From a virus (taxonomy: Duplodnaviria > Caudoviricetes): a stretch of 64,000 nt of DNA. Under the pieces are notes generated by a model, which was given only the letters and a program-made list of their open reading frames with translations, had not been told where the DNA came from and ran no database searches. Positions 23,290-64,000 of the stretch are shown here, piece after piece. Where the stretch lies: positions 2,085-66,084 of the IMG/VR virus record IMGVR_UViG_3300021961_011268; one strand, given 5' to 3'. The position numbers and the translations under genes were made by a program. The first letter of the stretch is position 1. Every line of letters starts with the position of its first letter.

Positions 23290-23298
23290 GGAAATATT

Positions 23299-28424: not shown

Positions 28425-28433
28425 GGTAGTAAA

Positions 28434-43281: not shown

Positions 43282-43283
43282 TA

Positions 43284-44000: not shown

Positions 44001-44003
44001 TAT

Positions 44004-45368: not shown

Positions 45369-46198
45369 TGCAAACATTTTATGGAGATAGTACGCGTTGG
45401 TTTATCGGTATTGTTACGAATAATAACGACCATGAATTAAAACTAGGGCGAGTACAAGTACGTATATATGGTATTCATGATAATACAGTTGATATTGCAT
45501 ATAAAGATTTACCATGGGCTCAAGTATTAGTACCATCAACGGAAGATGGAACATCAGGACTTGGTTTGAGTCCAAATCTCAAAAACGGTGCTCAAGTATT
45601 TGGTATTTTTCTTGATGGAAAACAATCACAAGCTCCTCTTATACTTGGTTCAATACCAAAAATAGAAATACCAACAATAACAAATATTGATAAAGCAATT
45701 ATTAATTCAAAAGTAAATGATAAAACTCTTGATATATCAAAAGAGCCTGTTGAGAAAATTAATAACCAAAAAAATATTGTTAAACAAGAAGGTTCTACAA
45801 ATGCTGAAATAGCTTATAATTTCTTTATTGCAAATAGTTTGTCTGCTTATGCAAGTGCAGGAATTGTTGGTTGTCTTATTACAAAGGCTGGTGCTAATTT
45901 AGATCCAACACAATTTACAAGAAGAAATGTTGTTTATCCTATTAGTCGGCTTTCAAGATATAATAAGTTTTCACGTGAGCATAATCTTGATGCTAATACA
46001 TTGAATGCAGTTTTACAATTTATTATTTATGAAGGAAATAAATATCCAGGGTTAGGTTTCCAACAAACAGTTGAATCGACTGATATTAATAAAATTGCTA
46101 CTAATTTTGGAAAAAGGTATCTTTTAATTAATAATACTAATAAACTTAAAGAATGTATTAATAATGCAAAAGATGTATATGAAAGGTTTTCTGGATAA
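45368..46198 (+). CDS. 5: gp5 N-terminal OB-fold plus degenerate tail-lysozyme-like domain
   Basis: WFIG.V, LGRVQVRIYGIH, LPWA and VFGIFLDG..Q.P.ILG motifs. Confidence 0.85.
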   Translation: MQTFYGDSTRWFIGIVTNNNDHELKLGRVQVRIYGIHDNTVDIAYKDLPWAQVLVPSTEDGTSGLGLSPNLKNGAQVFGIFLDGKQSQAPLILGSIPKIEIPTITNIDKAIINSKVNDKTLDISKEPVEKINNQKNIVKQEGSTNAEIAYNFFIANSLSAYASAGIVGCLITKAGANLDPTQFTRRNVVYPISRLSRYNKFSREHNLDANTLNAVLQFIIYEGNKYPGLGFQQTVESTDINKIATNFGKRYLLINNTNKLKECINNAKDVYERFSG

Positions 46199-47802: not shown

Positions 47803-49804
47803 AACATTTGAAAATGATGGGTTTATTGATCCAACTTTCCAATATCCTACTCAAGAATATTGGCTTAAGCCAAGTACAAATATATCGAATTATGCAGGTA
47901 AAAGTCATATATTAAATTATGGTGGTTCATATTCTAATATTAATATGAATTTTACTTATAATACAAATTCTGTCTACACTCAATGTAATACAAAAGAAAC
48001 TGCTTCTGGTCATATAATACAATATGATGATACTCTTGGACGTGAACGCGTATTGATTAAGCATCGTTCAGGATCTGGTCTTGAAATGAGACCTGATGGT
48101 ACCATTCTTGTTTCAAGTACAAATAAGCATGTACTTACCGTTGCTGCAGATCAAACTATAATTGTTGAAGGTAATGCTAATCTTATTTATAATGGCAATC
48201 TCAATGTTGATGTCATAGGCGATTATACTATGAATATTGGTGGTAATTATAACATTGACGTGATGGGTAACGTTCAGGAAAAATTAAAAGGCCGAAGAGA
48301 TACTGAAGTTGAATTAACCCAAACTCTTGATCTCAAAGAGAATTATGAATTAACTGTACTTGGTAATCAAACAGCGACAACTCTTGGTAATATGACTTCA
48401 CTCATCAAAGGTAATGGCAAAAATCATATTAATGGATCTTCAGAATATTTTGTTGGTGGTGCTCTTCGTATTACGGCAGAAGATTCATGTTCAATGTCTT
48501 CAGAAAATATTAATATTGGTGCAACTGATATAAGCCTCTTTGGTACGACTGGTACAATTGGCGGTGATGAAGTCATTATGTATACTAAAAATATTTTTGC
48601 CCAAAAGAGTGTTCATGCCGAAACTATGAAAGCAACCAAAACCATTTATGCAGATAAAAGTGTTCATGCTGAGACGATGCAAGTCACTGATACCTTTATT
48701 GGTGATCTCAAAGGAACTGCAGAAAAAGCAATCACTGCTGATGTAACGAATTCTCAGGGTTATGCTGAAAATGAGCAAGGAACAGCTGCTGGCTTTAGTA
48801 TTACTGATACTGCTGCAGATGAAACTCCAACTGATAGCGATCAGACTGCATTGCCAACAGCAGGAATTATGACCGCTTATCTCAATACTTCTGACAAAGG
48901 TATTAAAAGAGTCAATATTGATCCAGGTGATGGATTGAAAAACTCAATAGATCTTTCGGCCGAAACGGATCAGGTGATTCGTAGACAATTGACAACTGGT
49001 GAGGTAAGAGCAAGATTAAGAAATCCTGCAAATGTCAATGCTTCAAACTTTATAACAAAACAATTGTCTGATGGTGTCTTATCGCAAGATTATGCAATCA
49101 CAGTTCCACCTGGAGAAGTTGGAAGAATTGTATCAAAAGATGGTGGAATTATTCGAGGCCAAGATATTGTTACAACTCAAAATGCCGCATATGGTAAATT
49201 TGTACCAGGTCCAAAACTATTTAAAAATATACCTGATCCACAATATATCATTACTGATTCAAGTATCATTACGCCATCAACAAGATTGTCAGATAAATAT
49301 ACACTTGCTAAATTCCTTTCAGGGCAAGGTAATAAAGTAACACTCAATCATATTGTTGATAATACTGCAAGGATTTCAATTGCTCGAAATTTACAACAAC
49401 AAATAAATGCTATTAATGTATTTCATGACACTCTACGTTTTATGAATTATCGTCTTGTCATTATAGAATCTCTATATCAAACAGGACCGGGTGAATCAGC
49501 TTCTGATATTGCATCATTAGCTACAAATGGTCAATCAGTAGTGTATCAAGTAATTAATGATCTTGGACAAGTTGATCTTCCAAAAACATTTGAACTTGCC
49601 GAATATTGGAAAAGTTTTGTTCAATTTGATAAATGTATTCTTGATTATGATAATTATAATCCAGATGGAAGTCTTTCAGCTCAGATTGTTTTAACTATGC
49701 CAAACATAAGTACAACTTATGAAGCTTCTTATTCAAATAAAATTGAAACAAGATATAATAATAAAACACAATCAAGTTCAGACTTTGTTGAAATAAAGTT
49801 ATAA
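47795..49804 (+). CDS. gp5 C-terminal beta-helix spike portion with extra C-terminal domain
   Basis: ETASGHIIQYDDT.G.ER..I.HRSG motif followed by V.GN repeats. Confidence 0.75.
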   Translation: MAKTFENDGFIDPTFQYPTQEYWLKPSTNISNYAGKSHILNYGGSYSNINMNFTYNTNSVYTQCNTKETASGHIIQYDDTLGRERVLIKHRSGSGLEMRPDGTILVSSTNKHVLTVAADQTIIVEGNANLIYNGNLNVDVIGDYTMNIGGNYNIDVMGNVQEKLKGRRDTEVELTQTLDLKENYELTVLGNQTATTLGNMTSLIKGNGKNHINGSSEYFVGGALRITAEDSCSMSSENINIGATDISLFGTTGTIGGDEVIMYTKNIFAQKSVHAETMKATKTIYADKSVHAETMQVTDTFIGDLKGTAEKAITADVTNSQGYAENEQGTAAGFSITDTAADETPTDSDQTALPTAGIMTAYLNTSDKGIKRVNIDPGDGLKNSIDLSAETDQVIRRQLTTGEVRARLRNPANVNASNFITKQLSDGVLSQDYAITVPPGEVGRIVSKDGGIIRGQDIVTTQNAAYGKFVPGPKLFKNIPDPQYIITDSSIITPSTRLSDKYTLAKFLSGQGNKVTLNHIVDNTARISIARNLQQQINAINVFHDTLRFMNYRLVIIESLYQTGPGESASDIASLATNGQSVVYQVINDLGQVDLPKTFELAEYWKSFVQFDKCILDYDNYNPDGSLSAQIVLTMPNISTTYEASYSNKIETRYNNKTQSSSDFVEIKL

Positions 49805-49807
49805 ATA
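49800..49807 (+). promoter_or_regulatory. T4-type late promoter
   Basis: TATAAATA upstream of gp25. Confidence 0.7.
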
Positions 49808-49827
49808 GATAAAAATAAAGGCAAGAA

Positions 49828-50271
49828 ATGGTTAATAAAGTTTTTAGCGTTGAAGATGGCAATCAGCAGACAACAAGTGCAGTCACTGCTCGTAAACGCC
49901 TATATAAAGATATTGATTTATCATTCGCAAAAGCTCCATCAAATGATGTATATAAAAAGACCGATCTTGCTTCTATAAAACAAGCAATAAAAAATTTATT
50001 ATTGACAAACAATTTCGAAAAGCCGTTTAATCCAAACTTTGGTGCAAATATAAGAGCTTTACTTTTTGATCTTGCTGATGGAAGGCTTGAATCAAAAGCA
50101 AGAGAAAAAATTCAATTCGCAATTAATAAATATGAACCAAGAGTTGAAATAATGAAAATTAAAGTAGAACCAGAACCAGATCGAAATGACGTGAGAATAC
50201 AAGTGAATCTCAAAATAAGAAATTCAAGTACTACGTTCGATATAAGTACTTCATTAAACAGGTTAAGATAA
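49828..50271 (+). CDS. 25: Baseplate wedge gp25
   Basis: YKDIDLSF, IKNLLLT...EKPFNPNFG and YEPRV motifs. Confidence 0.92.
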   Translation: MVNKVFSVEDGNQQTTSAVTARKRLYKDIDLSFAKAPSNDVYKKTDLASIKQAIKNLLLTNNFEKPFNPNFGANIRALLFDLADGRLESKAREKIQFAINKYEPRVEIMKIKVEPEPDRNDVRIQVNLKIRNSSTTFDISTSLNRLR

Positions 50272-52076
50272 TGGCAACAAATATTTCATCATCAAGATTA
50301 GACTTCAATAATATTAAGAATCGTCTTAAAACTTTTCTTGCAGCAAAAAGCGAATTTACTGATTATGATTTTGAAGCCTCAGGACTTAATAACATTCTTG
50401 ATGTGTTGGCATATAATACTCATTTCAATGGATTAACTGCAAACTTTGCATTGAATGAATCATTTCTCAACACTGCACAATTAAGAAGTTCAATTGTTTC
50501 GCACGCTGAAACTCTTGGATATACACCAAGATCAATTACAGCTTCTATTGCCTATCTTAATTTATCACTTGATCTTACCGGTGTTGCAAATCGTCCATCT
50601 ACAATTACAATTCCAAGATATACAGCATTCACTTCATCAGTTGCTGGTGTATCTTATACCTTTAGAACTATAGCATCTTATACAGCGCCTGATGATGGTA
50701 CAGGTAGTTATACATTTGTGACTGCAGAAGGTTCAACATCAATTCCTGTTTATCAAGGTACAGAAAGAACAAAAACATTTTTTGTTGGAGATATTACTGA
50801 TCGTCAACTTTATGTAATACCTGACAACACAATTGATACAACAACACTTGATGTAAAGGTATATGCTTCACCAACATCTTCTTCATACACAACATATACG
50901 CTTCTCGATAATGCAACTTCAGTTGGTGTTGATAGTACATATTATTCTATACACGAAGCACCAAATGGATTCTATGAAATACATTTTTCTGATGGTATTA
51001 CCTTTGGTACCGCACCTATTTCAGGCAATAAAATTGTAATTAATTATTTATCAACAGTTGGCGCAGATGCAAATGGTGGTAGTACCTTTGCGCCAGTCTC
51101 TCAAGTGACAGTAAATGCTGTAAATTATAATCTTGGAGTCGTAACAGTAGCAAACTCATCGTCAGGCGCATCAAAAGAAGATAGTGAAGCAATTCGGCTA
51201 AATGCTCCAATTGCGTTTGCTGCTCAACAAAGGCTTGTGACAGCTGATGATTATAAAGCATTAATATTGAAAAGATATTCTGTTGCAACGGATGTAAGTT
51301 CATGGGGTGGACAAGATAATGTCCCTGTTGATTATGGTAAAGTATACATTTCAATTAAATATGTTGATGGAACAGCTGCTGCAACAAAAACCGCAACTGA
51401 ATCATCAATCACAACAAATTTGGTGAATAAACTCGGTGTTATGTCAATCACTCCAGTTTATGTTGAGCCAATCAATACATATATTGAAACTAAAACAACT
51501 TTCCGTTATGACCCAAGTGCTACAAATATTACAAGGAATACACTTTCTTCAAATATACAAACAGTGATTAATAATTATTTCACAAATAATTTAAAAAAAT
51601 TCAATACGACATTTAGAAAATCAAATCTTCTTACTTTGATTGATGATGTCGATCCAGGTGTGTTAAACTCAAAAATGAGTATTGTAATGAATCAAAGAGT
51701 AACACCAACTCTTGGTGTCAGTCAATCACATACTGTAATTTTTCCAGTTGCGCTTCCTTCACCAGATGATGTCAATTATATTATCACATCATCTTATTTT
51801 ACAGTAAATTCGCAATTATGTAATATTCGTAATTTATTAGGTAGTACTAAATTGCAACTTGTAAACCAATCAAGTCAAGTAGTGATTGATAATCTTGGCT
51901 CTTATAATACAAACGGTACAGTAAATATTGAAGGACTTACTATCAATTCAATGGTAGGTTCAACCTTTAAATTGAAAGCAGTGCCGGCAAATGAAAGTAC
52001 AATTACTCCATTAAGAAATTATATTATCGATAATGATATTGATGATTCATATGTAACAGGTGTTACTGAGACATAA
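50271..52076 (+). CDS. 6: Baseplate wedge gp6
   Basis: LDFNNIK, DYDFEASGL..LDVLAYNTH, NESFL.TAQLRSS and QQRLVTADDY motifs. Confidence 0.95.
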   Translation: MATNISSSRLDFNNIKNRLKTFLAAKSEFTDYDFEASGLNNILDVLAYNTHFNGLTANFALNESFLNTAQLRSSIVSHAETLGYTPRSITASIAYLNLSLDLTGVANRPSTITIPRYTAFTSSVAGVSYTFRTIASYTAPDDGTGSYTFVTAEGSTSIPVYQGTERTKTFFVGDITDRQLYVIPDNTIDTTTLDVKVYASPTSSSYTTYTLLDNATSVGVDSTYYSIHEAPNGFYEIHFSDGITFGTAPISGNKIVINYLSTVGADANGGSTFAPVSQVTVNAVNYNLGVVTVANSSSGASKEDSEAIRLNAPIAFAAQQRLVTADDYKALILKRYSVATDVSSWGGQDNVPVDYGKVYISIKYVDGTAAATKTATESSITTNLVNKLGVMSITPVYVEPINTYIETKTTFRYDPSATNITRNTLSSNIQTVINNYFTNNLKKFNTTFRKSNLLTLIDDVDPGVLNSKMSIVMNQRVTPTLGVSQSHTVIFPVALPSPDDVNYIITSSYFTVNSQLCNIRNLLGSTKLQLVNQSSQVVIDNLGSYNTNGTVNIEGLTINSMVGSTFKLKAVPANESTITPLRNYIIDNDIDDSYVTGVTET

Positions 52077-52079
52077 TAT

Positions 52080-53024
52080 ATGAAACAACGTACAAATACA
52101 TTTTTTAATCGTAAGGCAATTGACTTTAGAACTAGTCGTGTTGAAGATGTTTTACCGGATTATTTTAAAGAAGATTATCCAAATCTTATTAAATTCCTTG
52201 ATTATTATTATGACTTTATGGATTCAGATGGAACTCATGCTTTTAATAGCGAAATCTATGAATTATTTCGTGCAAAAGATATTGAATCAACTTCACTAGC
52301 TTTACTTGATAATATATTTAAAGAAATTGGTCTCGGTGCAAGTCAAAAATATTTTACAAATCCCAGACAGGTTGCTGCATTTTTAGCAAAATTTTATCGT
52401 ATCAAAGGTTCACTTTATTCAGCTGAAGGTTTCTTTCGAACATTCTTTAATGAACAACCAACTATTTCTTATCCAAAAGAAAATATATTTATTGTTAGTG
52501 AATCTCAAATAGGTACAGAATCACAACGTTTTATTATTAATAATGACATATATCAAATCTTTTCTATCTTAATCAAGATGTCTAGACCAGTATCACAATG
52601 GAAAGATTTGTATAAAAGATTTGCGCATCCAGCAGGTTGGTATTTTGCTGGAGAAGTACTACTTGAAGGTGTTGGTGATCTTATTGATTCAGATGGAATG
52701 CCATTATCAATACCAGATGAAGGGGCTAATTTATTCCAAGTAGATAATTCAGCTTCGTTCACTCTATCACCATTTACTTCGATTTCAGCAATCTACCCAG
52801 ATGGTGCTGATTCTGATGCTATTGATGAACGACTTGATTTGAATACAATTATTGACATATATGATTCAGCAACAATCGCAACATTAGATAGAATGTATGA
52901 CAATATTGAAGATGTAATTGATCTCATATCACCGACAATGGACGAAGACTCTGATGGATCAACCAAACCAATTAAAATGTCAAATATATTTGAACGTATG
53001 GATAAAGATAATTTTGACAATTAA
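52080..53024 (+). CDS. Baseplate wedge gp7-like (short)
   Basis: YPNLIKFLDYYY, FYRIKGS and HPAG motifs; follows gp6. Confidence 0.7.
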   Translation: MKQRTNTFFNRKAIDFRTSRVEDVLPDYFKEDYPNLIKFLDYYYDFMDSDGTHAFNSEIYELFRAKDIESTSLALLDNIFKEIGLGASQKYFTNPRQVAAFLAKFYRIKGSLYSAEGFFRTFFNEQPTISYPKENIFIVSESQIGTESQRFIINNDIYQIFSILIKMSRPVSQWKDLYKRFAHPAGWYFAGEVLLEGVGDLIDSDGMPLSIPDEGANLFQVDNSASFTLSPFTSISAIYPDGADSDAIDERLDLNTIIDIYDSATIATLDRMYDNIEDVIDLISPTMDEDSDGSTKPIKMSNIFERMDKDNFDN

Positions 53025-53037
53025 TATGAATATTTAT

Positions 53038-53045
53038 TATAAATA
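53038..53045 (+). promoter_or_regulatory. T4-type late promoter
   Basis: TATAAATA. Confidence 0.7.
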
Positions 53046-53066
53046 GATGTAATAAAAGGATTACAA

Positions 53067-53471
53067 ATGGCAAGGCAAAATATAGGAATTGGTTCTTCAG
53101 CAAATGACGGGACTGGAGATACGCTTCGAGAAGCAGGAACAAAGTTGAATGCCAACTTTACCGAGCTTTATGAAACTCTTGGCGGTCCTATTGGTGTAAG
53201 TACAATTACAGCAAATGGTGCAGTTTCAACTACTGCAGGTTATATTATATGTAATAAAGGAAGTGCACTTGCCCTTACTCTTGCCGATGGAATAGTTGTT
53301 GGTGAAACAAAAGTATTCACAAATAAAGGTGCTGGTGCCGCAACGGTTACCCCAGCAAACTTTGCTCAAGGCACTTCATTTGCTCTTGCTCAATATGATG
53401 GTTGTACTGTCATTTGGGATGGATCAAATTGGTATTTAATTGGTAACCAAGGTGAAATTACAGTAGCTTAA
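53067..53471 (+). CDS. Short baseplate protein with gp9/gp10-type N-terminus
   Basis: IGIGSSANDGTGDTLR.AG.K.N.NF.ELY motif. Confidence 0.75.
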   Translation: MARQNIGIGSSANDGTGDTLREAGTKLNANFTELYETLGGPIGVSTITANGAVSTTAGYIICNKGSALALTLADGIVVGETKVFTNKGAGAATVTPANFAQGTSFALAQYDGCTVIWDGSNWYLIGNQGEITVA

Positions 53472-53483
53472 TAGGAATAAAAA

Positions 53484-54836
53484 ATGACTGCAATATTAAC
53501 AGATGCATTGAAAAAACAAATATTAGTAGATATTTTAAATAATGTCAATGATTCAGCTGGAGCCGGTAATTATTATATTGGTATAGGACGTTCAGAAGAT
53601 TGGGATTCTGCTGATGATGCTCCAACAACTCTTAATAGTTTAAGAGAACAACGGAATTTTAGACTTGGTCTTCAATCTATCAAATCCGCTGAAGATGTAT
53701 CATTTGTAGTTCCACGTAATAATTGGGTATCAGGTGCAACTTATTCAGCTTATGATGATAATCAAGTTGGATATCCATCAAATCCATATTATGTTCTCAC
53801 AGAAGATGATCGTGTATATATTTGTTTACAACAAGGTCGTAATACTGGCGGCGTATCAGTTGCTTCGACTGTTAAGCCAAATAATACAACTTCAGCTTCT
53901 TTTAAAACAGCTGATGGTTATATCTGGAAATTCCTCTATACTCTTTCAGCAACAGCAAAAACTAAATATTTGTCAAGTAATTTTATTCCTGTTAAACTTC
54001 AAGGTCTAACCGATTCTAACTCTGTTGCTTCAGAAATACAACAAGAGTTACTTCAAGATTCTGCGATTGTAGGTCAAATTGCAAATATTACAATAACAAA
54101 TGGTGGAACCGGTTATACTTCTACACCTACAATTGGAATTGTTGGTAATGGTGATTCTGCTACTGCAGTAGCTGTTATATCTGGTGGATCAATTGTAGAT
54201 ATTAAACTTGATTCAAATGGTATTGGTAAAATTAATCATGGATATGGATATGATTATGCAAATATAACTATTACTGGCGGTTCTGGTTCTGGTGCTATAG
54301 CTCGGGCAAATCTATCACCAAAGCTTGGTTTTGCTGGAGATGCAAGAGATGATATGAAATCTTCAAGTCTTATGTTTAATACAAAACCTGCTGGTACAGA
54401 ATCAGGCAAATTCTTAATAGGCCAAGATTTTAGACAAGTTGCTTTGATTAAAAATCCAAAAGTACCAAGTACAGACTCAGATTATACGCAAGCTTCTGGT
54501 CTTGGATTACTTAAAATGACTTTTTCCGCTGTCACTACGCCATTCACTGCAGATAGAACAATATCTGGTGCATCATCTGGCGCAAAAGCATTTGTTGATA
54601 CATTTGACTCAGATTATTTGTATTATCACCAAACAGAGGAAACAGGATTTACAGCATTTACAAACGGTGAAGCTATAAGCGAAGATGATGGTTCTGGTGC
54701 AGGCACTGCAGATTCTGCTGCTGTTACTCTTGATATAAATAGATTAACAGGTGATATTTTATATATCGAAAATAGAGCAGCAATTGATCGATCAGTTGAA
54801 CAAACAGAAGATATTAAAGTAATTATTCAAATTTAA
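53484..54836 (+). CDS. 8: Baseplate wedge gp8
   Basis: YYIGIGR, VVPR.NW, VYICL, DGYIWKFLY, FRQV.LIKNP and YIENR..I.R...Q.EDIK motifs. Confidence 0.88.
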   Translation: MTAILTDALKKQILVDILNNVNDSAGAGNYYIGIGRSEDWDSADDAPTTLNSLREQRNFRLGLQSIKSAEDVSFVVPRNNWVSGATYSAYDDNQVGYPSNPYYVLTEDDRVYICLQQGRNTGGVSVASTVKPNNTTSASFKTADGYIWKFLYTLSATAKTKYLSSNFIPVKLQGLTDSNSVASEIQQELLQDSAIVGQIANITITNGGTGYTSTPTIGIVGNGDSATAVAVISGGSIVDIKLDSNGIGKINHGYGYDYANITITGGSGSGAIARANLSPKLGFAGDARDDMKSSSLMFNTKPAGTESGKFLIGQDFRQVALIKNPKVPSTDSDYTQASGLGLLKMTFSAVTTPFTADRTISGASSGAKAFVDTFDSDYLYYHQTEETGFTAFTNGEAISEDDGSGAGTADSAAVTLDINRLTGDILYIENRAAIDRSVEQTEDIKVIIQI

Positions 54837-54849
54837 TTGGTAAAATAAT

Positions 54850-57800
54850 ATGACAACTACTTATACTGAAACCTTATTTGCAAATACGTATAAAGACGAT
54901 TATGCCGATTCGGATAATTATTATCGCATTTTATTTAATTCTGGTAGAGCTCTTCAAGCCCGTGAATTAACTCAAATGCAAACAATAATTCAAGCCGAAA
55001 TTGAAAGATTTGGTAATAACATTTTTAAAGATGGTGCTGCAGTAAATCCTGGTGGTCCTTCAATTAATGCCAAATACGAATTCATTAAATTGAATACGTC
55101 TGTAAATGGATTACCAGCAACAAGTATTGTTGGAAATACATTTACCGGTTCAGGAATTAGCGCAAAGGTTCTTGAAGTAGTTGCTGCAACAGGTAGTGAT
55201 CCTGCTACTCTTTATGTTCAATATACGGATACATCTGGTGGAACATCAGGATCAACACCAATTCGTATGACTCCTGGTGATAATATTACCGATGGAACAA
55301 ATACTCTTACTGTTCAAACAACAAATACTTTAGCAAATCCGGCAGTTGGTGCTGGCGTTAAACTGAGTGCAGGTCCTGGTGACTTTTTTGTTCAAGGACA
55401 TTTTGTATTCTTTAATGGTGGTTCATTAATTGTATCAAAATATAGTCCAACATATACTGGAACAGTTGGATTTAAAATAGTACAAGATGTTGTAACTGCA
55501 GGTGATAATTCTGCTCTATATGATAATCAAGGAGCAACACCAAATCTTTCAGCTCCAGGTGCTGATCGTTACCGTATTCAACTTGTATTGATCGATCAAG
55601 CAGATATTACTGGAACTGATAATTTTGTATTCTTTACAAAAATTATTAATTCAGAAATTGTTGATCAAGCAAAAGGTACAGATAATTATAATAAGATTAA
55701 TGATTTACTTGCTCTTCGTACAAAAGAAGAATCAGGTAATTATATAGTTGATCAATTCATATTAAAATTCGATGAGGATTCTGCTGCAGGTGATGCAACA
55801 ATCCTTAAAGCCGATGTAAGTAATGGTATTGCTTATGTTGATGGTTATCGTTCAGAAATTCCTGCACCAGTTACTATTAATGTCAATAGAGCTCAAACTA
55901 CAACTACTGAAAATAATGAAGTTGTTGGTGCTAATTATGGTAACTATCTTATTGTTGAAGGAGCAGATCCTCAAGGTCTTCCAAATATTTCAACTTTTGA
56001 GAAATGGAATTTACAAGATACCACATCATATGGTGGCGCTACAATAGGTACAGCACGTATTCGCTCAATTGATAATTATGGTACAGATTACAAATATTAT
56101 CTATTTGACATTCAAATGAATTCTGGTCAATCTTTCAGAAATGTGAAAAGTATAGGACTTGATTCTGATAATTGGGCAAATCCAATACTAGAATCTGGTA
56201 AAGCAGTACTTAAAGAGACAAATAAAAATAATCTTTTATTTAGTCTTCCTGTACAACGTCCACAATCATTAAGTGATATATCACTTGAAGTTCAAAGATA
56301 TCGTACTGCAACAACAGATGGTTCTGGTAATGCTACAATTACTCTTTCTGCAACAGGTGAAACATTTGCAAATACAAATGATTGGTTAGTCTCAGTTGAT
56401 TCTTCTGGTGCATTTATTTCTCCATCAATTTCTGGTTCTGGTACACAATCATCAACCATTAGTGGAGCTCCACATAATTCAGCAATCCAAATATTGACAA
56501 AAGTAAATAAAGCTTCTGGATCAATAAGAACAAAAACTCTTACAGAAACAACATTTACTGGTACTGTTGATTCAGATGGCAATGGCCTTGAAATTATGAG
56601 TCTTGGAAAAGCAGACATATATGAAGTGACAAGAGTTACATCTGTTGATTCTGATGGAATTGACTTAAGTTCACTCTTTACGATTGATAATGGACAAAGA
56701 GATAATTTCTATGCTCCAGGTAAATTGATTGTAAAAGGTAACCAAACACCACCAGCTGGAAACGTATTTGTAAGATTTAAATATTTCCAACATGGCGCGT
56801 CAGGTGATTTCTTTGCTGTAAATTCATATACAGGTCAAGTAAGCTATTCAAATATTCCAAACTATATACTTGCTGATGGTACAATTGTTGAATTAAGAAA
56901 TGTGCTTGATTTTAGACCCCGTCAAGATGATACAGGTGCAAACTTTAGTGGAGCTACTGCAAGAGTAAACGAACTTCCTTCACCAACAGATCTAATTACA
57001 ACAGATGTTACGTATTATCTTGGAAGAAAAGATAAATTGGTTCTTTATCCTCCAACTCAAAGTCGTTTAAGATCTACACTTGATATTATTGAAGGTAAAC
57101 CAAGTACTGAGCCACAATATCCTTCAACGCCAGATGGTGCATTGAATCTTTATCGTATTGAAATGAATCCATATACTATTAATGACTCGGATCTTTCAAT
57201 TGAAAAAATAGATGCAACTCGTTACACAATGGCTGATATTGGTAAAATCGATCGTAAATTAAATAAACTTCAAGAAGTTACATCGCTTTCTCTTCTTGAA
57301 GCTGATACTAATAATCTTACGATTCTTGACTCAGCTGGCACTAATCGTTTGAAATCCGGTTTTCTTGTTGATAATTTTGCAAATCATGTTTATTCTGATA
57401 CAAATGCAATTGATTATCGGGCAAGTATTAATCTTCTTACAAAAACTTTACATCCTGAGATTCGAGAAGATAATAATAGATTGATTTATGACTCTGATCT
57501 AAGTACTAATACAATTAAAAAAGGCGATAATGTTTATATTAATTATACTGAAACTGAAGCAATAGGGCAAGATAAAGTTTCAACTACACAGAATCTTAAT
57601 CCATTTAATGTTATTGCATATAACACTGAGATTGTACTTTCTCCTGCAAGTGATGAATGGAAAAGTCGTGAAAACGAAGTTCCAGCACTTGATATTGGAA
57701 CACCAATAACAACGCCAAAACAAAAATTTAATTATGATAATGTGACCGTTAACTGGTTAGGAATGTCTGACGGTCAGCTTGAATATCATTTCCCTAATGG

Positions 57801-59916
57801 AATACCTGATTGGGCATTTGATCAAAATGTAACTGTATCAAAATCAAGTATTCCAAAAAATGTTCTTGGTGTTAATTATAATGTTAATAGCGCAATAACT
57901 TCTGTGATCAACGAACGTACTATTAGTAAAACAATCGTTCCGTTTATGAGATCAAGAAAAATATACTTTAAAACATCTGGACTGATACCAAATTCAACAT
58001 ATTTTGCATTCTTTGATGGTATTTCTGTTGCTAATTGGGTAAGAGAAGAAACATTTAGCTTCTTAGCTGATGATGTTGATGATTATGGAGATAAATATGC
58101 AAATGCGACTGCACATCCAGAAGGATCTACAGCGCTTATCGCAGATGCAAGTGGTACTATCGAAGGTTCATTCTTTATACCAAATATTTCATCGATAAAA
58201 TTTAGAACTGGAGCTCGAGAATTTGCACTATTAGATATTAATGTCTATAATAAATCTAATGCACTTTCATATGCAACTGCTCTCTATACTTCAGCAGGAG
58301 CATTACCACCTGGTGAAGTACTAAACACTAAACCGCAAATAAAAACAATTGGTTATTACGATCCAATTGCGCAATCAATATTAATTAATGAAGATAAAGG
58401 ATTCTTTATTACGAAGGTAAGAATCTATTTTGCAAGTAAAGATAGTACACTTCCTGTAAAAGTAACAATACGTCCAATGGTAAATGGACGTCCTTCATCT
58501 TATGACATTATTCCTGGATCAATTGTTTATAAAAATCCATCAGCTGTAAATATTGTTGGAACACAAACAACTGCTGGTGTTCTTGCAGCCGGTACTGATT
58601 TTGAATTTGATGAACCAATATACTTAGAACCTCAAACAGAATATGCAATTTGTGTATCTGCGGAGTCATCTGATTATTCGGTTTATGTTTCTGAAGTAGG
58701 TCAATTTGAACTTGGATCAACAGAAAAAAGAATTACAAGACAACCGAATCTTGGTTCACTTTTCCTTTCTCAAAATGGTACTACTTGGGAATCAAAACAA
58801 ATGCGAGATCTTACTTTTAAAGTATATCGTGCAGATTTTGATACTGCAGGTGGAAATATTATTCTTGAAAATGCTGCATTACCGACTGATCAACTTACTC
58901 TAAATCCTTTCTCTGTTGATTCTGGTGATGCAACAATTACAGTATATCATCCTGGTCATGGTCATGATTCTGGTGAAAGTGTTGTAATTTCAGGTTTAGA
59001 TTCTGCAACCGCATATGCAGGTATTCTTGGATCTTCATTAAATGGTACTCGAACAATTACCGGATATGATTATGATTATTATACCTTTGAAGCGGATTCG
59101 GCTGCAACTTCTTCTGCAGATATTGGTTCTACTCTTATCTCCGCATCAAAGAATATTAAATTTGATGTTGTAAATCCAATTATTGAAACACTTGAACCTA
59201 TTGGAACAAAATTATCAATTGAGGGTAAATTTACAACTGGTACATCAATTGCTGGAACTGAAACAAAGTATCAAAAAGATACATCATTTTCTCCTCTTGC
59301 ATTTAAAGATAATAAAATATTTAAAGCTCCATCATTAATTGCAAATAGTACAAATGAAACTGTCGAACTTGGATCTGGCATTAAATCAACAACCATCCAA
59401 ATACCAATGACAACAACATCTTCATTGGTATCACCAGTAGTTGATATGTCAAGAGCTTCACTTGCTACAGTATCTCATCGTATTGATAAACAAGCAAGTG
59501 TTGCAACAACTGGATTTAATGTTCCATTAAATTATGCTGCTGAAACTGTAGCTGAAAATGGTTCTCATCTGGCTAAACATATTACCACACCTATTATACT
59601 CAATGAAGATGCTGTTGGATTAAAATTGCTTATTTCAGCAAATCGACCTTCAGTTGCTGATTTCCTTGTTTATTATAGAGTAGCAGGTGATGGCGATATA
59701 TTGAAAGATCAAGCTTGGACACTTGTTGATAAAGAAAACGAAATTGCTTCAGACGATAATCCAAAAATCTTCCGTGAATATACTTATCTTGTTGGTGGTG
59801 ATGGTGGAGATCTAGATGCATTTAGCGAATTCCAATTGAAGATCGTAATGAGATCAACGAATAGTTCAAAAGTTCCTACGATTGGAAACTTAAGAGCAAT
59901 TGCGATGGCAGTATAA
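54850..59916 (+). CDS. Large virion structural protein (DUF4815/VrlC-like)
   Basis: YYRILF..GRALQARELTQMQ, APGADR, RTKEESGNY, DPIAQS and GSLFLSQNG.TW motifs. Confidence 0.85.
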   Translation: MTTTYTETLFANTYKDDYADSDNYYRILFNSGRALQARELTQMQTIIQAEIERFGNNIFKDGAAVNPGGPSINAKYEFIKLNTSVNGLPATSIVGNTFTGSGISAKVLEVVAATGSDPATLYVQYTDTSGGTSGSTPIRMTPGDNITDGTNTLTVQTTNTLANPAVGAGVKLSAGPGDFFVQGHFVFFNGGSLIVSKYSPTYTGTVGFKIVQDVVTAGDNSALYDNQGATPNLSAPGADRYRIQLVLIDQADITGTDNFVFFTKIINSEIVDQAKGTDNYNKINDLLALRTKEESGNYIVDQFILKFDEDSAAGDATILKADVSNGIAYVDGYRSEIPAPVTINVNRAQTTTTENNEVVGANYGNYLIVEGADPQGLPNISTFEKWNLQDTTSYGGATIGTARIRSIDNYGTDYKYYLFDIQMNSGQSFRNVKSIGLDSDNWANPILESGKAVLKETNKNNLLFSLPVQRPQSLSDISLEVQRYRTATTDGSGNATITLSATGETFANTNDWLVSVDSSGAFISPSISGSGTQSSTISGAPHNSAIQILTKVNKASGSIRTKTLTETTFTGTVDSDGNGLEIMSLGKADIYEVTRVTSVDSDGIDLSSLFTIDNGQRDNFYAPGKLIVKGNQTPPAGNVFVRFKYFQHGASGDFFAVNSYTGQVSYSNIPNYILADGTIVELRNVLDFRPRQDDTGANFSGATARVNELPSPTDLITTDVTYYLGRKDKLVLYPPTQSRLRSTLDIIEGKPSTEPQYPSTPDGALNLYRIEMNPYTINDSDLSIEKIDATRYTMADIGKIDRKLNKLQEVTSLSLLEADTNNLTILDSAGTNRLKSGFLVDNFANHVYSDTNAIDYRASINLLTKTLHPEIREDNNRLIYDSDLSTNTIKKGDNVYINYTETEAIGQDKVSTTQNLNPFNVIAYNTEIVLSPASDEWKSRENEVPALDIGTPITTPKQKFNYDNVTVNWLGMSDGQLEYHFPNGIPDWAFDQNVTVSKSSIPKNVLGVNYNVNSAITSVINERTISKTIVPFMRSRKIYFKTSGLIPNSTYFAFFDGISVANWVREETFSFLADDVDDYGDKYANATAHPEGSTALIADASGTIEGSFFIPNISSIKFRTGAREFALLDINVYNKSNALSYATALYTSAGALPPGEVLNTKPQIKTIGYYDPIAQSILINEDKGFFITKVRIYFASKDSTLPVKVTIRPMVNGRPSSYDIIPGSIVYKNPSAVNIVGTQTTAGVLAAGTDFEFDEPIYLEPQTEYAICVSAESSDYSVYVSEVGQFELGSTEKRITRQPNLGSLFLSQNGTTWESKQMRDLTFKVYRADFDTAGGNIILENAALPTDQLTLNPFSVDSGDATITVYHPGHGHDSGESVVISGLDSATAYAGILGSSLNGTRTITGYDYDYYTFEADSAATSSADIGSTLISASKNIKFDVVNPIIETLEPIGTKLSIEGKFTTGTSIAGTETKYQKDTSFSPLAFKDNKIFKAPSLIANSTNETVELGSGIKSTTIQIPMTTTSSLVSPVVDMSRASLATVSHRIDKQASVATTGFNVPLNYAAETVAENGSHLAKHITTPIILNEDAVGLKLLISANRPSVADFLVYYRVAGDGDILKDQAWTLVDKENEIASDDNPKIFREYTYLVGGDGGDLDAFSEFQLKIVMRSTNSSKVPTIGNLRAIAMAV

Positions 59917-59917
59917 T

Positions 59918-60145
59918 ATGAGTGATTATGTACAAGTTGAAGGACATTCTGGTCTTGTAAGAGATAAAAGGTCAGGTGCTATTTTGAATATAAATAGCAC
60001 TGATATTGAAAAAGCAAGAAAAGCAAAGGCCTTAAAAAGAAAAAACATATTAAAGAATGAACTATTAGAAACACAAGTACATGATTTACAAAATGAAATT
60101 GTTGAAATAAAAGGTCTACTTAATAAAATTTTAGAGAAACTATAA
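59918..60145 (+). CDS. Small coiled-coil protein of the T4-like structural module
   Basis: VEGHSGLVRD..SGAILN motif and C-terminal heptads. Confidence 0.7.
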   Translation: MSDYVQVEGHSGLVRDKRSGAILNINSTDIEKARKAKALKRKNILKNELLETQVHDLQNEIVEIKGLLNKILEKL

Positions 60146-60510
60146 TGGCAAAAACATTTGTAAACTTAAATGATACCATAGCTACTTGGAGAACACAACA
60201 TAATGATGTCGTTAATCTAATTGGTGATCTTGCTAGTCTTACAACAACCCAAGATTCAGATCTTGTTGGTGCAATTAATGAATTACAAGGTTTTCGTTCA
60301 GGTATTGATTCAGATGTTGGAACAAGAACATCTCTTACAACAACAGATAAATCATCTTTAGTTGCAGCAATTAATGAAATTGATTCAGATCTTGGTACGA
60401 TTAGTTCTTTATCAACAACAGATAAAGCATCTTTAGTTGCAGCAATTAATGAGTTAGAAGGAAGAATTGTAAACGTATATAATAGTTCTGGAACGCTCCT
60501 AAATACTTAA
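60145..60510 (+). CDS. Short fibre-like protein with three L.TT.....LV.AINE repeats
   Basis: LTTTQDSDLVGAINE, LTTTDKSSLVAAINE and LSTTDKASLVAAINE. Confidence 0.75.
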   Translation: MAKTFVNLNDTIATWRTQHNDVVNLIGDLASLTTTQDSDLVGAINELQGFRSGIDSDVGTRTSLTTTDKSSLVAAINEIDSDLGTISSLSTTDKASLVAAINELEGRIVNVYNSSGTLLNT

Positions 60511-60518
60511 GGATATGA

Positions 60519-63254
60519 ATGAGTACGCCAATAAAATTAACTGGTACGGGCGGAGATCTAGAACAATTCACTGTTGCAGAGCAAAATTATCTAGCATATC
60601 AAGCGGCGATACATTTATCCTTATCTGATTCAGATGATGTAGGAGCTTTAGATACTAAAATTGGTGGAAATTTAGTAGGTACATATACTGATACTATATA
60701 TGACCAACCAGTTGGTACTCATCCTGGTGCATCTCTTACTCAATCAACTGCAAATACATCTCTTTACCAAAATACTGGAACTGCACTTGAAAATGGTGGC
60801 GACTTTCATCGTCCTCTTGAATGGAATAATATTGATGTAAGTCCAGCTGGGTTAAAAGAAGTAAACGATACAAATCTTAATACTTTGGTTGATAGACTAC
60901 TTAGTACCGTTTTTACAAATGATTATCCTGGAACTTATCAACTTGGAACATCAGCTCCTTCCGGTGATTATACAAGTTATTTAACAAACATATTTACTGA
61001 TACACGAACAGATGGTACAAATGTAAATTATTCAATATTTAAAAGAACAAGTATGACACCACCTACTCAATATAAAGCTGTAAGGGCAAAAAGAGTAGGT
61101 GGCAATTTTGCTGGCGTACAAGTAATGTCTGAAGCTGAAAGTAGATATACTTTTGGCCAAAGAGCAAAAACAAGAATACTTGCTTCTGGGATTGGCACAT
61201 ATCAATTAAGAAGTTCAGCACAAGGTGCTCCTACAGACCCGGGCACATGGGTATCAAAAGGTATTGCAACTGATACATTACAAGATGTTGCTGATGATGA
61301 TTTTACTCGTACAAGTTTAACTGAATATGCTGTTGATTATACTGGAGATTATACAGGTAACTATATTTCATCCGTTGACTCTACAATAAATAGTACAAGT
61401 GATTTTATTGGTGACTTTACAGGCAATTATGTAGGTAATTATATTGCCTCTGTTGATAGTACAAGTGATAGTACAACTGAATTTGTTGGTGACTTTACTG
61501 GAAACTATGTTGGTAATTATATTGCTTCTGTCAATTATGCAAGCAATTCAACCGTAGATTATGCTGGAGATTATATTGGAAATTATATTACTTCTGTTAA
61601 TTATATTAGTAATAGCACGCAAGATTTTATTGCGGATTATACTGGTAACTATATTTCTTCTGTTGATTATTCAAGTAATAGCACCAGTATTTTTACCGCT
61701 AATTATATTGGTAACTATATTTCTTCTGTAGACTATACATCTACACGTGCTACTGATTTTATTGGTGACTTTACTGGTAATTATATAGGTAACTATATTT
61801 CTTCTGTTGATTATGCATCTATACGTGCTACAGATTTTATTGCGGATTATACTGGTAACTATATTGGTAATTATATAGCATCAGTTGATTATGCATCCAC
61901 ACGTGCTACAGATTTTATTGCGGATTATACTGGTAACTATATTTCTTCTGTTGATTATGCAATAAATTCAACAAGTGATTTTATTGCGGATTATACTGGT
62001 AACTATATTACTGCTGTTGATAGCACAACCAATTCAACTGATACTTTCACTGGTGACTTTACCGGTAATTATATTGGTAACTATATTGCAGATGTTGATA
62101 GTACAAGCAATTCAACTGATACTTTCACTGGTGACTTTACTGGTAATTATATTGGTAACTATATTGCAGATGTTGATAGCACACGAGTAAGTACGAGAGT
62201 AAGTACAAGAACAAGTACGAGAAATAGTGCTGTGTTTACTTTTGACGGATTATTCTATTTTATCGGTAATTATATTGGTAACTATACTGGTAACTATACT
62301 GGTAACTATCTTAGTGCTATAGATTCTACTAGCGATAGCACAAGAAATTCTACTAGCGATTTTATTGCTGATTTCACCGGTAACTATGTTGGTGCTGTTG
62401 ATAGCACAATTGATAGTACAAGCAATTCAACAAGTGATTTTATTGGTGATTTCACAGGTAACTATATTGCATCTGTTGATAGTACGAATAATTCAACTGA
62501 TACTTTCACTGGTGACTTTACTGGTAATTATATTGGTGCTGTTGATAGCACAATCAATTCAACTGATACATTTACAGGCGATTTTGCTGGTAACTATCTT
62601 GGTGCTGTAGATTCTACTATTGATAGCACAAGCAATTCAACTGATACATTTACAGGCGATTTTGCTGGAAATTATATCGGTGCAGTTGATAGTACGATTG
62701 ATAGTACAAGCAATTCAACTGATACATTTACAGGAGATTTTGCTGGTAACTATCTTGGTGCAGTTGATTCAACATCTGATTCGACTGCTGATTTTACTGG
62801 TGATTTTACTGGAAATTATATCGGTGAAGTTGATAGTACGAATAATTCAACTACAACTTTTACAGGTGATTTTACTGGCGATTATATTGGTATTGTTGAT
62901 TCAACAAATAATAGTATAGTTCAATATACCGGTGATTTTATAGGTGATTATATTGGCGCAGTTGATTCAACAATTGATAGCACATCAAATAGTGTTGATA
63001 CATTTATCGCAAATTATATTGGTAACTATATTGGTGCAGTTGATTCAACAATTGATAGTACAAGCAATTCAACTGATACATTTGTTGCCGATTTTACAGG
63101 AAATTATATAAGTGCCGTTGATAGTACCATTAATAGCACTGTAGATTATAGTGGTGGTTATATTGCTGATTATACTGGCAATTATGCGGGTTCTACAATA
63201 CAAAGCAGTAGTTCTATTATTGAAACATATACTCTTTATGTTAGAATTGCATAA
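60519..63254 (+). CDS. Repeat-rich virion fibre-like protein
   Basis: About 600 aa of (D/N)(F/Y)(T/I)G and VDST..NST repeats after a globular N-terminal domain. Confidence 0.7.
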   Translation: MSTPIKLTGTGGDLEQFTVAEQNYLAYQAAIHLSLSDSDDVGALDTKIGGNLVGTYTDTIYDQPVGTHPGASLTQSTANTSLYQNTGTALENGGDFHRPLEWNNIDVSPAGLKEVNDTNLNTLVDRLLSTVFTNDYPGTYQLGTSAPSGDYTSYLTNIFTDTRTDGTNVNYSIFKRTSMTPPTQYKAVRAKRVGGNFAGVQVMSEAESRYTFGQRAKTRILASGIGTYQLRSSAQGAPTDPGTWVSKGIATDTLQDVADDDFTRTSLTEYAVDYTGDYTGNYISSVDSTINSTSDFIGDFTGNYVGNYIASVDSTSDSTTEFVGDFTGNYVGNYIASVNYASNSTVDYAGDYIGNYITSVNYISNSTQDFIADYTGNYISSVDYSSNSTSIFTANYIGNYISSVDYTSTRATDFIGDFTGNYIGNYISSVDYASIRATDFIADYTGNYIGNYIASVDYASTRATDFIADYTGNYISSVDYAINSTSDFIADYTGNYITAVDSTTNSTDTFTGDFTGNYIGNYIADVDSTSNSTDTFTGDFTGNYIGNYIADVDSTRVSTRVSTRTSTRNSAVFTFDGLFYFIGNYIGNYTGNYTGNYLSAIDSTSDSTRNSTSDFIADFTGNYVGAVDSTIDSTSNSTSDFIGDFTGNYIASVDSTNNSTDTFTGDFTGNYIGAVDSTINSTDTFTGDFAGNYLGAVDSTIDSTSNSTDTFTGDFAGNYIGAVDSTIDSTSNSTDTFTGDFAGNYLGAVDSTSDSTADFTGDFTGNYIGEVDSTNNSTTTFTGDFTGDYIGIVDSTNNSIVQYTGDFIGDYIGAVDSTIDSTSNSVDTFIANYIGNYIGAVDSTIDSTSNSTDTFVADFTGNYISAVDSTINSTVDYSGGYIADYTGNYAGSTIQSSSSIIETYTLYVRIA

Positions 63255-63294: not shown

Positions 63295-64000
63295 ATGGGT
63301 ACGCCAATAAAATTAAATGGTAGTAGCGGCGATATAAAAGAATTCACTACAAGTGAAGAAAATTATCTTGCGTATCAGCTTGGTCTACGATTAGCTGCTG
63401 CCGCAAAAAATACTCCTGGATCTCTTGATAATATTGCTCGTGGAGGTCAGACTACTGTAGGTACATATACAGATACTTCATTTGATCAAGCAATTGGTAC
63501 TCATCCGCAATCAGGTATTACAACAACAACCGTAAATGTTCCACTTTATCAAAATACTGGTTCAGGAACAGAAACAGGTTCTGGTTTTAAAAGACCCATT
63601 CATTGGAATACTGCTCTTACTCCTGATTCAATACAAGAAATGAATGATACAAATTTCAATTCTTGTATTGATCGATTACTTAGCACCGTATTTACTAATG
63701 ATTATCCTGGAACATTTAAGCTTGCTTCATCAGCTCCTTCTGCTGATTATACTTCAGAAATTAGTAATATATTTAGTGACACAAGAACAGATGGTTCAAT
63801 AGTTAATTATTCTATCTTTAAAAGAAGAACAATGACTGCACCAACTGCCGTTAGATCAATTGCAATTAAAAGAGATGCAGCATCAAGTAAGCCTGATAAT
63901 TATGTTGGTTTACAAGAAATGACAGATGCTGAAATTACGGAAACCTTTGGTGAAAGAGCAAAAACGCGAATCAGTGCAAGTTTAATTGGTACATATCAAT
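63295..64000 (+). CDS. Paralog of the 60519 fibre protein (truncated by the window end)
   Basis: MGTPIKLNGSSGD...NYLAYQ, GTHP, DRLLSTVFTNDYPGT and DTRTDG shared with the previous gene. Confidence 0.85.
   Translation, partial: MGTPIKLNGSSGDIKEFTTSEENYLAYQLGLRLAAAAKNTPGSLDNIARGGQTTVGTYTDTSFDQAIGTHPQSGITTTTVNVPLYQNTGSGTETGSGFKRPIHWNTALTPDSIQEMNDTNFNSCIDRLLSTVFTNDYPGTFKLASSAPSADYTSEISNIFSDTRTDGSIVNYSIFKRRTMTAPTAVRSIAIKRDAASSKPDNYVGLQEMTDAEITETFGERAKTRISASLIGTYQ

Follow-up and report, generated by a model that had tools for sequence, protein, structure and literature searches.

The stretch of DNA analysed here (the window, 64 kb out of a virus record of 66 kb; G+C content about 32%) encodes outer tail proteins in which the dipeptide Asp-Ser (DS) recurs in front of a narrow choice of residues, and the question raised by this locus is whether the pattern is a tag written into the virion surface and, if so, what reads it. 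Judging from its Pfam domains, among them NrdA/B, RNase H and gp32, the phage is a T4-like marine myophage. Its closest deposited relative by the baseplate protein gp8 is Phage C48C1 (unassigned; 37% identity), followed by Pelagibacter phages (27-28%) and cyanophages (about 25%).

A sequence-only reading of the window had proposed that a D-S-(D/A/G/N/T) motif directs glycosylation of the virion, and the observation behind it was confirmed and sharpened. The results support a tag, Asp-Ser-(Asp/Ala) or DS[DA], that is selected at the protein level, sits on outward-facing tail proteins, is specific to one clade and behaves as if it were read by something. They comprise count statistics, the limits of the clade, the restriction to exposed proteins, the turnover of sites, the co-occurrence of genes and the fold of a protein of 201 amino acids (aa). 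The modification itself, its being a sugar and the identity of the enzymes that would write it are what we infer from the sequences.

A tripeptide on the outer tail proteins

The baseplate genes of the window are arranged in the order gp5-like, gp25, gp6, gp7-like, gp9/10 N-terminal domain protein, gp8 and a 1688-aa DUF4815 protein, with the fibre genes next (all features are on the plus strand unless stated otherwise). The hand counts of the sequence-only reading were reproduced throughout. The gp7-like baseplate wedge protein (52080..53024; 314 aa; PF23786, E 6.4e-13) contains five DS, four DSD and one DSA, at residues 48, 203, 244, 262 and 290. The gp8 wedge protein (53484..54836; 450 aa; PF09215, E 1.2e-10), whose family profile matches the T4 gp8 chains 9f4a (E 2.9e-9) and 1n7z (E 7.3e-7), contains nine, seven of which are DS[DA] (five DSA and two DSD, next to two DSN). 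The giant DUF4815 baseplate or fibre-base protein (54850..59916; PF16075, E 3e-45) has 14, ten of them DS[DA] (six DSD, four DSA, two DSG, one DSS and one DST). A 121-aa fibre protein (60145..60510; PHROG tail fibre families), which gave no match to solved structures, has three, all DSD, each directly preceding a helix motif of the type L-V/G-x-A-I-N-E-L. The 911-aa fibre (60519..63254) has 26. The small gp9/gp10 N-terminal-type protein (53067..53471; 134 aa; PF07880, E 8.4e-10) has none here, and its longer homologues are tagged. As had been noticed, DS is absent from NrdA and gp32.

Expected counts were calculated from each protein's own composition, and p values were obtained from within-protein shuffles. 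By this measure the excess of the bare dipeptide is modest, with 57 DS seen and 31.1 expected over the seven open reading frames (ORFs) of 52080-63254. It was significant singly only in gp8 (9 vs 3.6, p 0.005) and in the 911-aa fibre (26 vs 12.0, p 0.0002), and not in the gp7-like protein (p 0.17), the DUF4815 protein (p 0.17) or the 121-aa fibre (p 0.11). Nine dipeptides outscore DS by z-score, all of them belonging to the repeat of the 911-aa fibre.

The true signal is the restriction of the third residue, not the dipeptide. Among the 31 DS of the six non-repeat ORFs (2788 aa), the following residue is D in 15 cases, A in 10, N in two, G in two, and S and T in one each. DSD (15 vs 1.51 expected) and DSA (10 vs 1.47) rank first and second among the 8000 tripeptides, and together DS[DA] was found 25 times against 3.0 expected, an excess of about eightfold that is sharper than the sequence-only reading had stated; none of 20000 shuffles reached 25, and none exceeded 12. 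The pattern D-x-[DA] is raised only when x is Ser, all other middle residues being at or below expectation, and x-S-[DA] is raised only when x is Asp. DT is depleted in the same non-repeat proteins (10 vs 19.3 expected). In the inner baseplate and hub module (42265..52076), which encodes by Pfam a tube cap, gp53-like, gp27-like and gp5-like proteins, an amidase, a gp5 C-terminal domain protein, gp25 and gp6, the tag is scarce, with 12 DS against 15.9 expected, one DSD and no DSA. All window ORFs other than the six non-repeat ones together hold three DSD and one DSA (4.4 and 3.7 expected).

Codon usage at these sites argues for selection at the protein level, as had been proposed. The 25 DS[DA] sites are encoded by GAT or GAC, then TCA, TCT or TCG, then GAT or GCN, and the full set of 31 non-repeat DS sites adds AGT for Ser and a varied third codon. 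The DNA word GANTC, put forward earlier as a possible source of the motif, is indeed in excess in 52080-63254 (57 vs 34.5 expected). However, 47 of the 57 copies lie in frame 0, and frames 1 and 2 are at background (10 in 11.1 kb, compared with 65 in 44.5 kb of other plus-strand genes). The peptide therefore accounts for the GANTC excess. The choice of Ser codons contrasts sharply between adjacent late genes: 40 of the 45 Ser in gp8 are TCN-coded, and in the 911-aa fibre TCN and AGY occur 56 times each.

The 911-aa fibre, in which an N-terminal domain precedes about 25 tandem repeats as defined by Tandem Repeats Finder (TRF) and the repeat register, had been counted as evidence for the motif, but it is not an independent instance. 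All but one of its 26 DS are DST inside repeats of 22-26 aa with the form (V/I)DST(IDST)xNSTDTFTGDFTGNYIGNYIxx, some copies having VDY or VNY in place of the DST position, and its count does owe inflation to these repeats. The earlier statement that both Ser codon families are used there was correct (17 AGY and 9 TCN). Homologous fibres in relatives show little DS excess (for instance 12 vs 10.5 in the closest one). Since D-S-T is depleted across the clade (0.40 of expectation), the fibre DST is a different, repeat-borne feature and not part of the conserved tag.

The fibre repeats deserve description in their own right. They are built from four-residue sub-units (xDST, xNST, GDFT and GNYI) with a 12-nt period, TRF returning periods of 12, 66 and 78 nt, and their many NST triplets agree with the N-x-S/T pattern. 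Some neighbouring copies have 88-93% DNA identity, which suggests recent expansion. A paralogous fibre gene begins downstream (63295..63999) and runs off the window; it has the N-terminal domain in common with the 911-aa fibre, and both match a single fibre of the complete relative G001.

Distribution and turnover of the tag in the clade

When IMG/VR was scanned with gp8, 284 of 324 candidate stretches were confirmed as relatives, and the best 80 loci (47-98% identity) were analysed. Clade counts are based on unique sequences only; these sequences are related, and the totals are not independent events. Outer protein families were enriched 4.4-12.7 times, with DS[DA] seen and expected counts of 187 and 23 for the gp7-like protein, 66 and 11 for the gp9/10 N-terminal domain protein, 181 and 31 for gp8, 327 and 74 for DUF4815, 122 and 14 for the 121-aa-fibre family and 97 and 18 for the 911-aa-fibre family. 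The inner baseplate families were depleted, at 9 seen and 54 expected combined (ratio 0.17): gp27-like 0/2, gp5-like 0/2, amidase 9/15, gp5 C-terminal domain 0/10, gp25 0/2 and gp6 0/24. These counts bear out the earlier assignment of the motif to outer virion proteins.

Across the outer proteins the ratio of seen to expected was 5.8 for D-S-[DA], 2.15 for D-S-[SG], 0.74 for D-S-N, 0.40 for D-S-T and 0.25 for D-S followed by a bulky hydrophobic residue. Hence the third residue is restricted as had been noticed, but the set is D or A and then S or G; N and T, which had been included, are depleted. Altered motifs fell below expectation (D-T-[DA] 0.83; E-S-[DA] 0.52), and by these counts Asp and Ser are both strictly required, with Thr, Glu and bulky third residues not accepted. 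In 990 unique contexts the consensus is hydrophobic at positions -4, -2 and -1, the third residue is D in 0.31, A in 0.24, S in 0.15 and G in 0.10, and the residue after the tag is G in 0.24.

Two complete relatives with terminal repeats extend the picture to the rest of the virion. In G001 (149 kb; gp8 53% identical), the block from the gp7-like gene to the fibres plus the gp14 neck protein, the gp15 sheath stabiliser and the sheath carries 55 DS[DA] against 8.9 expected, and all other ORFs carry 9 against 19.9 (6 of 2000 shuffles were as low). The terminase, portal and scaffold have none, and the major capsid protein has one. Four sites of the G001 sheath lie at residues 89-248, before the conserved sheath domains, which are matched from residue 296. 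In G006 (146.6 kb; gp8 49% identical), the eleven homologous proteins carry 42 against 7.5 and the other ORFs 14 against 22.7. The single DSD of the G001 major capsid protein (L091:10257-11570) is flanked by two DSS, the three falling within 18 residues at aa 133-150, and the tag may also mark one capsid loop in this phage.

In three phages outside the clade the tag was not found in general excess. Orthologues of the gp7-like protein, gp8, the giant baseplate protein and the fibres in the cultured phages HTVC008M and Syn9 show no excess (gp8, 1 vs 0.7 and 1 vs 0.5), which indicates from sequence comparison that the fold does not need it. The whole HTVC008M proteome has 28 DS[DA] against 28.0 expected, with no protein having at least three, and the expectation is therefore well calibrated. 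The gp7-like, gp8 and DUF4815 proteins of C48C1 have none; this phage was dropped as a tag-positive case, the excess in its connector protein (15 vs 3.2 expected) being due to a four-part tandem repeat.

Within the clade, sites come and go at a constant density. In 53 gp8 sequences there were 15 distinct DS[DASG] sites, of which two were present in at least 80% of the sequences, eight had a frequency of 20-80% and five were below 20%, with a steady four to eight sites per sequence. One row (L067), whose gp8 frame has 7 stops, was excluded from alignment A1. The gp7-like protein has 18 distinct sites (three conserved) and DUF4815 has 21 (five conserved), and gp6 averages 0.2 per sequence. In the sheath, two sites of G001 and G006 share an alignment column and two are displaced by 2-6 columns. 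With proximity to indel-prone alignment columns (within five columns) as a proxy for exposure, the fraction of sites near such columns was 0.67 in gp8 (0.34 for other residues), 1.00 in the gp7-like protein (0.43) and 0.43 in DUF4815 (0.32, a small difference).

The sequence-only reading expected the sites to map to surface loops on AlphaFold models. In the AlphaFold2 model of gp8 (pLDDT 74.1, pTM 0.65) the contexts were varied: residue 23 directly follows a helix, 41 is part of a disordered loop, 177 precedes a helix, 192 belongs to a helix's last turn, 224 and 375 are at hairpin turns, 243 and 331 are loop residues and 410 lies within a strand. No single local structure is thus common to the modelled sites, and the preference for coil was not significant.

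These data allow a purely structural explanation to be weighed, in which the motif would be an Asp-Ser-small-(Gly) turn or a divalent-cation site stabilising exposed tail loops in sea water, without covalent modification. D, S, then D/A/S/G, then G are classic turn formers, and the hydrophobic pattern before the motif is strand-like. Seven of the nine gp8 sites are at helix ends, hairpins or loops, several are conserved in 40-45 of 54 sequences, and the sheath sites lie in equivalent loops in G001 and G006. However, orthologues of the same fold in two other marine phages do without the motif, and the local contexts vary from site to site. A metal site of the DxD type would tolerate other middle residues, whereas Ser alone is enriched, and about 40% of the sites have Ala in place of Asp. 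Nor would a motif of passive loops predict the equally specific depletion in inner and non-virion proteins. We regard this explanation as unlikely, while giving it real weight.

Candidate writer genes and their neighbours

If the tag is read, the genes of a reader may be sought in the sugar-metabolism island located upstream of the baseplate module, which by Pfam encodes KdsA, KdsB, a radical SAM/SPASM enzyme, FkbM methyltransferases, three glycosyltransferases (GT) of family GT25, a nucleotidyl transferase and sulfotransferases. Genes common to the window and G001 include the radical SAM enzyme with a 294-aa partner, three GT25, two GT8-like proteins, a 201-aa protein, a nucleotidyl transferase and a sulfotransferase. 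The island contains a conserved four-gene transferase cassette (22555..25237) composed of two GT25 (PF01755 twice), a 213-aa GT8-like protein and the 201-aa CstII-like protein (24632-25237), the last two with weak matches to GT8/Nucleotid_trans and PF01973. A third GT25 (15970-16611) is followed by a 262-aa GT8-like protein (16601-17389; the pair spans 15970..17389), the latter being 60% identical in G001.

GT25 genes are present in the window (three copies) and in the relatives G001-G004 (three to five matches each), and were not found in C48C1, HTVC008M or Syn9, nor in G005, a fragment that is 31% complete; one of the window copies gave a single weak match among 50,697 phage records. The family of the 201-aa protein comprises 578 metagenome proteins, with identities typically of 54-60%, and among deposited phages the protein occurs in C48C1 only. 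It gave 532 IMG/VR matches, and neighbourhoods were taken from the best 80 loci. The two GT25 of the cassette were neighbours in 78 and 76 of these 80 loci and the GT8-like gene in 78, and the 262-aa GT8-like gene was within 10 kb in 66; a sulfotransferase homologue was near the cassette in 21, and the radical SAM gene was within 10 kb of it in 6. Over all ORFs of the 80 island loci, DS[DA] was seen 87 times against 179 expected, none of the ORFs having at least three.

The AlphaFold2 model of the 201-aa protein (pLDDT 90.4, pTM 0.89) is predicted to have a sialyltransferase fold like that of the Campylobacter enzymes CstII and Cst-I over nearly its full length. The best Foldseek match was CstII (1ro7_C; E 1.1e-3, probability 0.99, TM 0.43), and VIA-align gave Z 10.0-10.6 against CstII and Cst-I with rmsd 4.1-4.3 over 171-187 of the 201 residues. 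Other rows of the same search were a Pasteurella sialyltransferase (Z 10.0), the HPPK-type kinase MptE (Z 9.6), mammalian sialyltransferases (Z 6.9-8.8) and thiamin pyrophosphokinases (Z 5.5-8.5). The family has invariant G-N-G, C-N and C-G-H columns, which may resemble the CstII motifs. Its profile returned only chance-level rows against the sequences of the PDB.

KdsA and KdsB (11408..12939; PF00793, PF02348), which together make CMP-activated 3-deoxy-D-manno-octulosonic acid (CMP-Kdo), had been counted as part of the glycosylation system. This part of the proposal was not borne out, as neither gene has a homologue in G001, which carries the tag; they are accessory genes that are not conserved with it. 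KdsA was also uninformative as a host indicator, its best 80 genome matches being 44-52% identical and spread across many phyla.

The 294-aa protein and the radical SAM/SPASM enzyme (13505..15375) form a pair kept in the window, G001-G003 and C48C1, the enzyme being 65-71% identical among them (70% in G001). Among 50,697 deposited phage records the enzyme was found in C48C1 only; in NCBIfam it gave only sub-threshold generic radical SAM matches, and the 154 homologues of its partner are all hypothetical and without Pfam domains. As a writer the pair is not favoured, given its rarity near the cassette and its presence in C48C1, which has no general tag.

Other genes of the window are of independent interest. 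A RuBisCO large-subunit-like protein (19329-20393; 354 aa; PF00016, E 4.9e-26) lies within the sugar island, is nearest to the type III and OiaX-like decarboxylase models, and has a homologue at most 10 kb from the cassette in 22 of 80 related loci. A curli-secretion-type operon (27347-33247) encodes CsgF-like and CsgG-like proteins, a FecR-domain protein and a CHASE2 adenylate/guanylate cyclase; its gene order is kept in G001 at 40-47% identity, and such an outer-membrane channel with a sensor cyclase is unusual cargo in a lytic T4-like phage. Between gp32 and the baseplate module there is a minus-strand block with a staphylococcal-nuclease-like gene (38400-38861) and a TnsA-like endonuclease (41701-42213), both with homologues in G001.

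Weighing the readings of the tag

The explanation that we place first, tentatively and as somewhat short of probable, is that the tag Ser is the acceptor of a phage-made modification added in the cytoplasm, for which O-glycosylation is the best candidate. A selected surface tag, Asp-Ser-(Asp/Ala, less often Ser/Gly), usually following a hydrophobic residue, would be written into the outer baseplate and fibres, and in complete relatives also into the neck, the tail-sheath stabiliser and the outer part of the sheath. Its Ser would be modified by phage enzymes during assembly, possibly through stepwise O-glycosylation by the cassette of two GT25, the GT8-like protein and the CstII-like transferase, the last adding a CMP-activated ulosonic acid such as Kdo as first sugar or as cap. 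The full form of this reading, in which an abundant marine clade has the outside of its tail glycan-coated at the Ser of DS[DA] by a cytoplasmic cassette including the CstII-like transferase and the rest of the proteome has been purged of the sequon against stray modification, is doubtful as a whole. Of the virion with sequon-directed glycosylation that had been proposed from the window, the selected motif, the exposed proteins and the association with glycosyltransferases held, the Bacteroidota type and the Kdo genes did not, and the glycosylation itself is putative.

Several points weigh against modification by the cassette. The clade has no cultured member, the modification is predicted from sequence, and D, S, G and A are residues that often form turns. 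For the 201-aa protein, Z scores near 10 are only moderately above the background of 7-8 stated for the tool, the sole Pfam match (PF01973) has E 0.13 and 12.4 bits compared with a cut-off of 34.6, and none of 20 distant family members matched a transferase family in Pfam. Phage C48C1 has the CstII-like gene and the radical SAM pair, yet its gp7-like, gp8 and DUF4815 proteins are untagged; the CstII-like gene alone is therefore not predictive of the tag, and the GT25 and GT8-like genes appear to track it better, on three outgroups only. The proposed covariation with glycosyltransferases thus stands in that the tag travels with the cassette, but it is confounded with phylogeny, being one clade set against three outgroup phages; no clade member lacking the cassette was found that could serve as a test. 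GT25 enzymes and CstII use lipo-oligosaccharide sugar acceptors, and remodelling of the host envelope may therefore be the island's role instead. Finally, depletion in the window's own 73 ORFs upstream of 52080 was not significant alone (4 vs 7.6 expected; 362 of 3000 shuffles as low), and neither was the coil location of the gp8 sites (6 of 9 Ser compared with 51% coil overall).

Cytoplasmic modification would have parallels. Phage tail proteins assemble in the cytoplasm, where Maf enzymes put ulosonic-type sugars on Ser/Thr of flagellin. CstII and Cst-I (GT42) and the Maf/MptE-like enzymes of PF01973 use CMP-activated ulosonic acids, and the window encodes CMP-Kdo synthesis; however, sequence identity is 12-15%, the 201-aa protein is shorter, and the acceptor of CstII is a sugar, not a protein.

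Mycobacteriophages, as Freeman and co-workers reportedly described in 2023, have virions O-glycosylated in the cytoplasm by phage-encoded glycosyltransferases, and the window likewise encodes three GT25, two GT8-like proteins and one protein of CstII-like fold. This would be the only established kind of system to which the present case belongs. The mycobacteriophage sites are said to be on capsid and tail-tube subunits, with no short sequon defined, in phages of actinobacterial hosts, whereas here, in a marine T4-like phage, the candidate targets belong to the tail, baseplate and fibres, carry a sharp tripeptide and are predicted from sequence.

A further likeness is to the staphylococcal enzymes SdgB and SdgA. 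PMC8561734 describes O-GlcNAcylation of the minimal peptide DSD by SdgB, and PMC3794999 the shielding of staphylococcal adhesins from cathepsin G by Sdg glycosylation. In both systems the acceptor Ser, putative in the phage, is flanked by Asp, DSD being the minimal SdgB substrate and the most enriched tripeptide in the phage. SdgB and SdgA are soluble glycosyltransferases that add sugars stepwise from nucleotide sugars to surface proteins, protecting them from protease. They differ in having the GT-B fold and in acting on long uninterrupted SD repeats, whereas the phage sites are isolated tripeptides scattered over folded proteins (S-D-S ratio 0.92 in outer proteins) in which Ala can replace the second Asp. 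No match to the GT-B/GT4 family (Glycos_transf_1) was found in the Pfam scans of window ORFs, which returned GT25 and weak GT8 only.

What speaks for a tag that is read holds likewise for a different reader, either an enzyme adding another group to Ser (phosphate, sulfate, phospho-alcohol or acyl) or a decoration protein or assembly factor that docks there. The window and its relatives encode sulfotransferases and nucleotidyl transferases, and G001 has a zeta-toxin-like kinase. Such genes are less constant than the cassette, as the sulfotransferase frequency near it illustrates, and the sulfotransferase families matched are of carbohydrate type by their PHROG and Pfam names. A reader other than a glycosyltransferase is accordingly judged fairly improbable.

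The Bacteroidota-type pathway suggested by the sequence-only reading, with a D-(S/T)-x sequon, en-bloc transfer of an O-glycan and phage-made CMP-Kdo, is very improbable. The sequon is given as D-(S/T)-(A/I/L/V/M/T) in PMC8550257, and the review PMC12871550 states that bacterial O-glycosylation generally lacks a sequence motif, Bacteroidota being the only exception, and that the system is periplasmic, acts on non-cytoplasmic proteins and is abolished by Gly as third residue. DSA and the fibre DST fit this sequon, KdsA and KdsB are present in the window, and the phage tag resembles it in the obligatory Asp before the acceptor, the intolerance of Glu and the restricted third residue. However, D-[ST]-[AILVMT] is not enriched, either in the outer proteins of the clade (1017 vs 973, ratio 1.04) or in the non-repeat proteins of the window (15 vs 15.3), Thr is unused, and the commonest third residue, Asp, is outside the sequon. 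The Bacteroidota system takes Thr and a methyl-bearing third residue, rejects Gly and employs a periplasmic oligosaccharyltransferase on exported proteins, whereas the phage tag is Ser-only, prefers Asp, Ala, Ser or Gly and lies on proteins assembled in the cytoplasm. Pfam scans matched none of the window ORFs scanned to an oligosaccharyltransferase, flippase or polyprenyl-phosphate transferase family, KdsA and KdsB are absent from G001, and the host is not inferable from the scattered KdsA matches.

An artefact of DNA or composition (selection on GANTC, inflation by repeats) can be dismissed as almost certainly wrong, because the GANTC excess is confined to frame 0, 17 of the 26 fibre DS use AGY codons, which are incapable of forming GANTC, the 25 non-repeat sites have varied codons and the enrichment persists after the fibre is taken out.

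The open-access literature searched yielded no paper on a tag of this kind in phage tails. Even if the motif were structural, a tripeptide of one clade that is eightfold up on exposed proteins and depleted elsewhere calls for explanation. If it is a phage-written glycosylation site, this would be the first sequon-directed glycosylation of a phage virion and only the second sequence-defined O-glycosylation motif of the bacterial world, and would extend phage self-glycosylation, so far demonstrated in mycobacteriophages only, to T4-like phages that infect marine hosts. A short, portable acceptor tag with its enzymes, testable in E. coli, would be a further gain. If the tag is a modification site, decorated virion surfaces would become predictable from sequence in a widespread group of ocean phages, and a coating of the fibres and baseplate would matter for adsorption, protease resistance and recognition by hosts and grazers.

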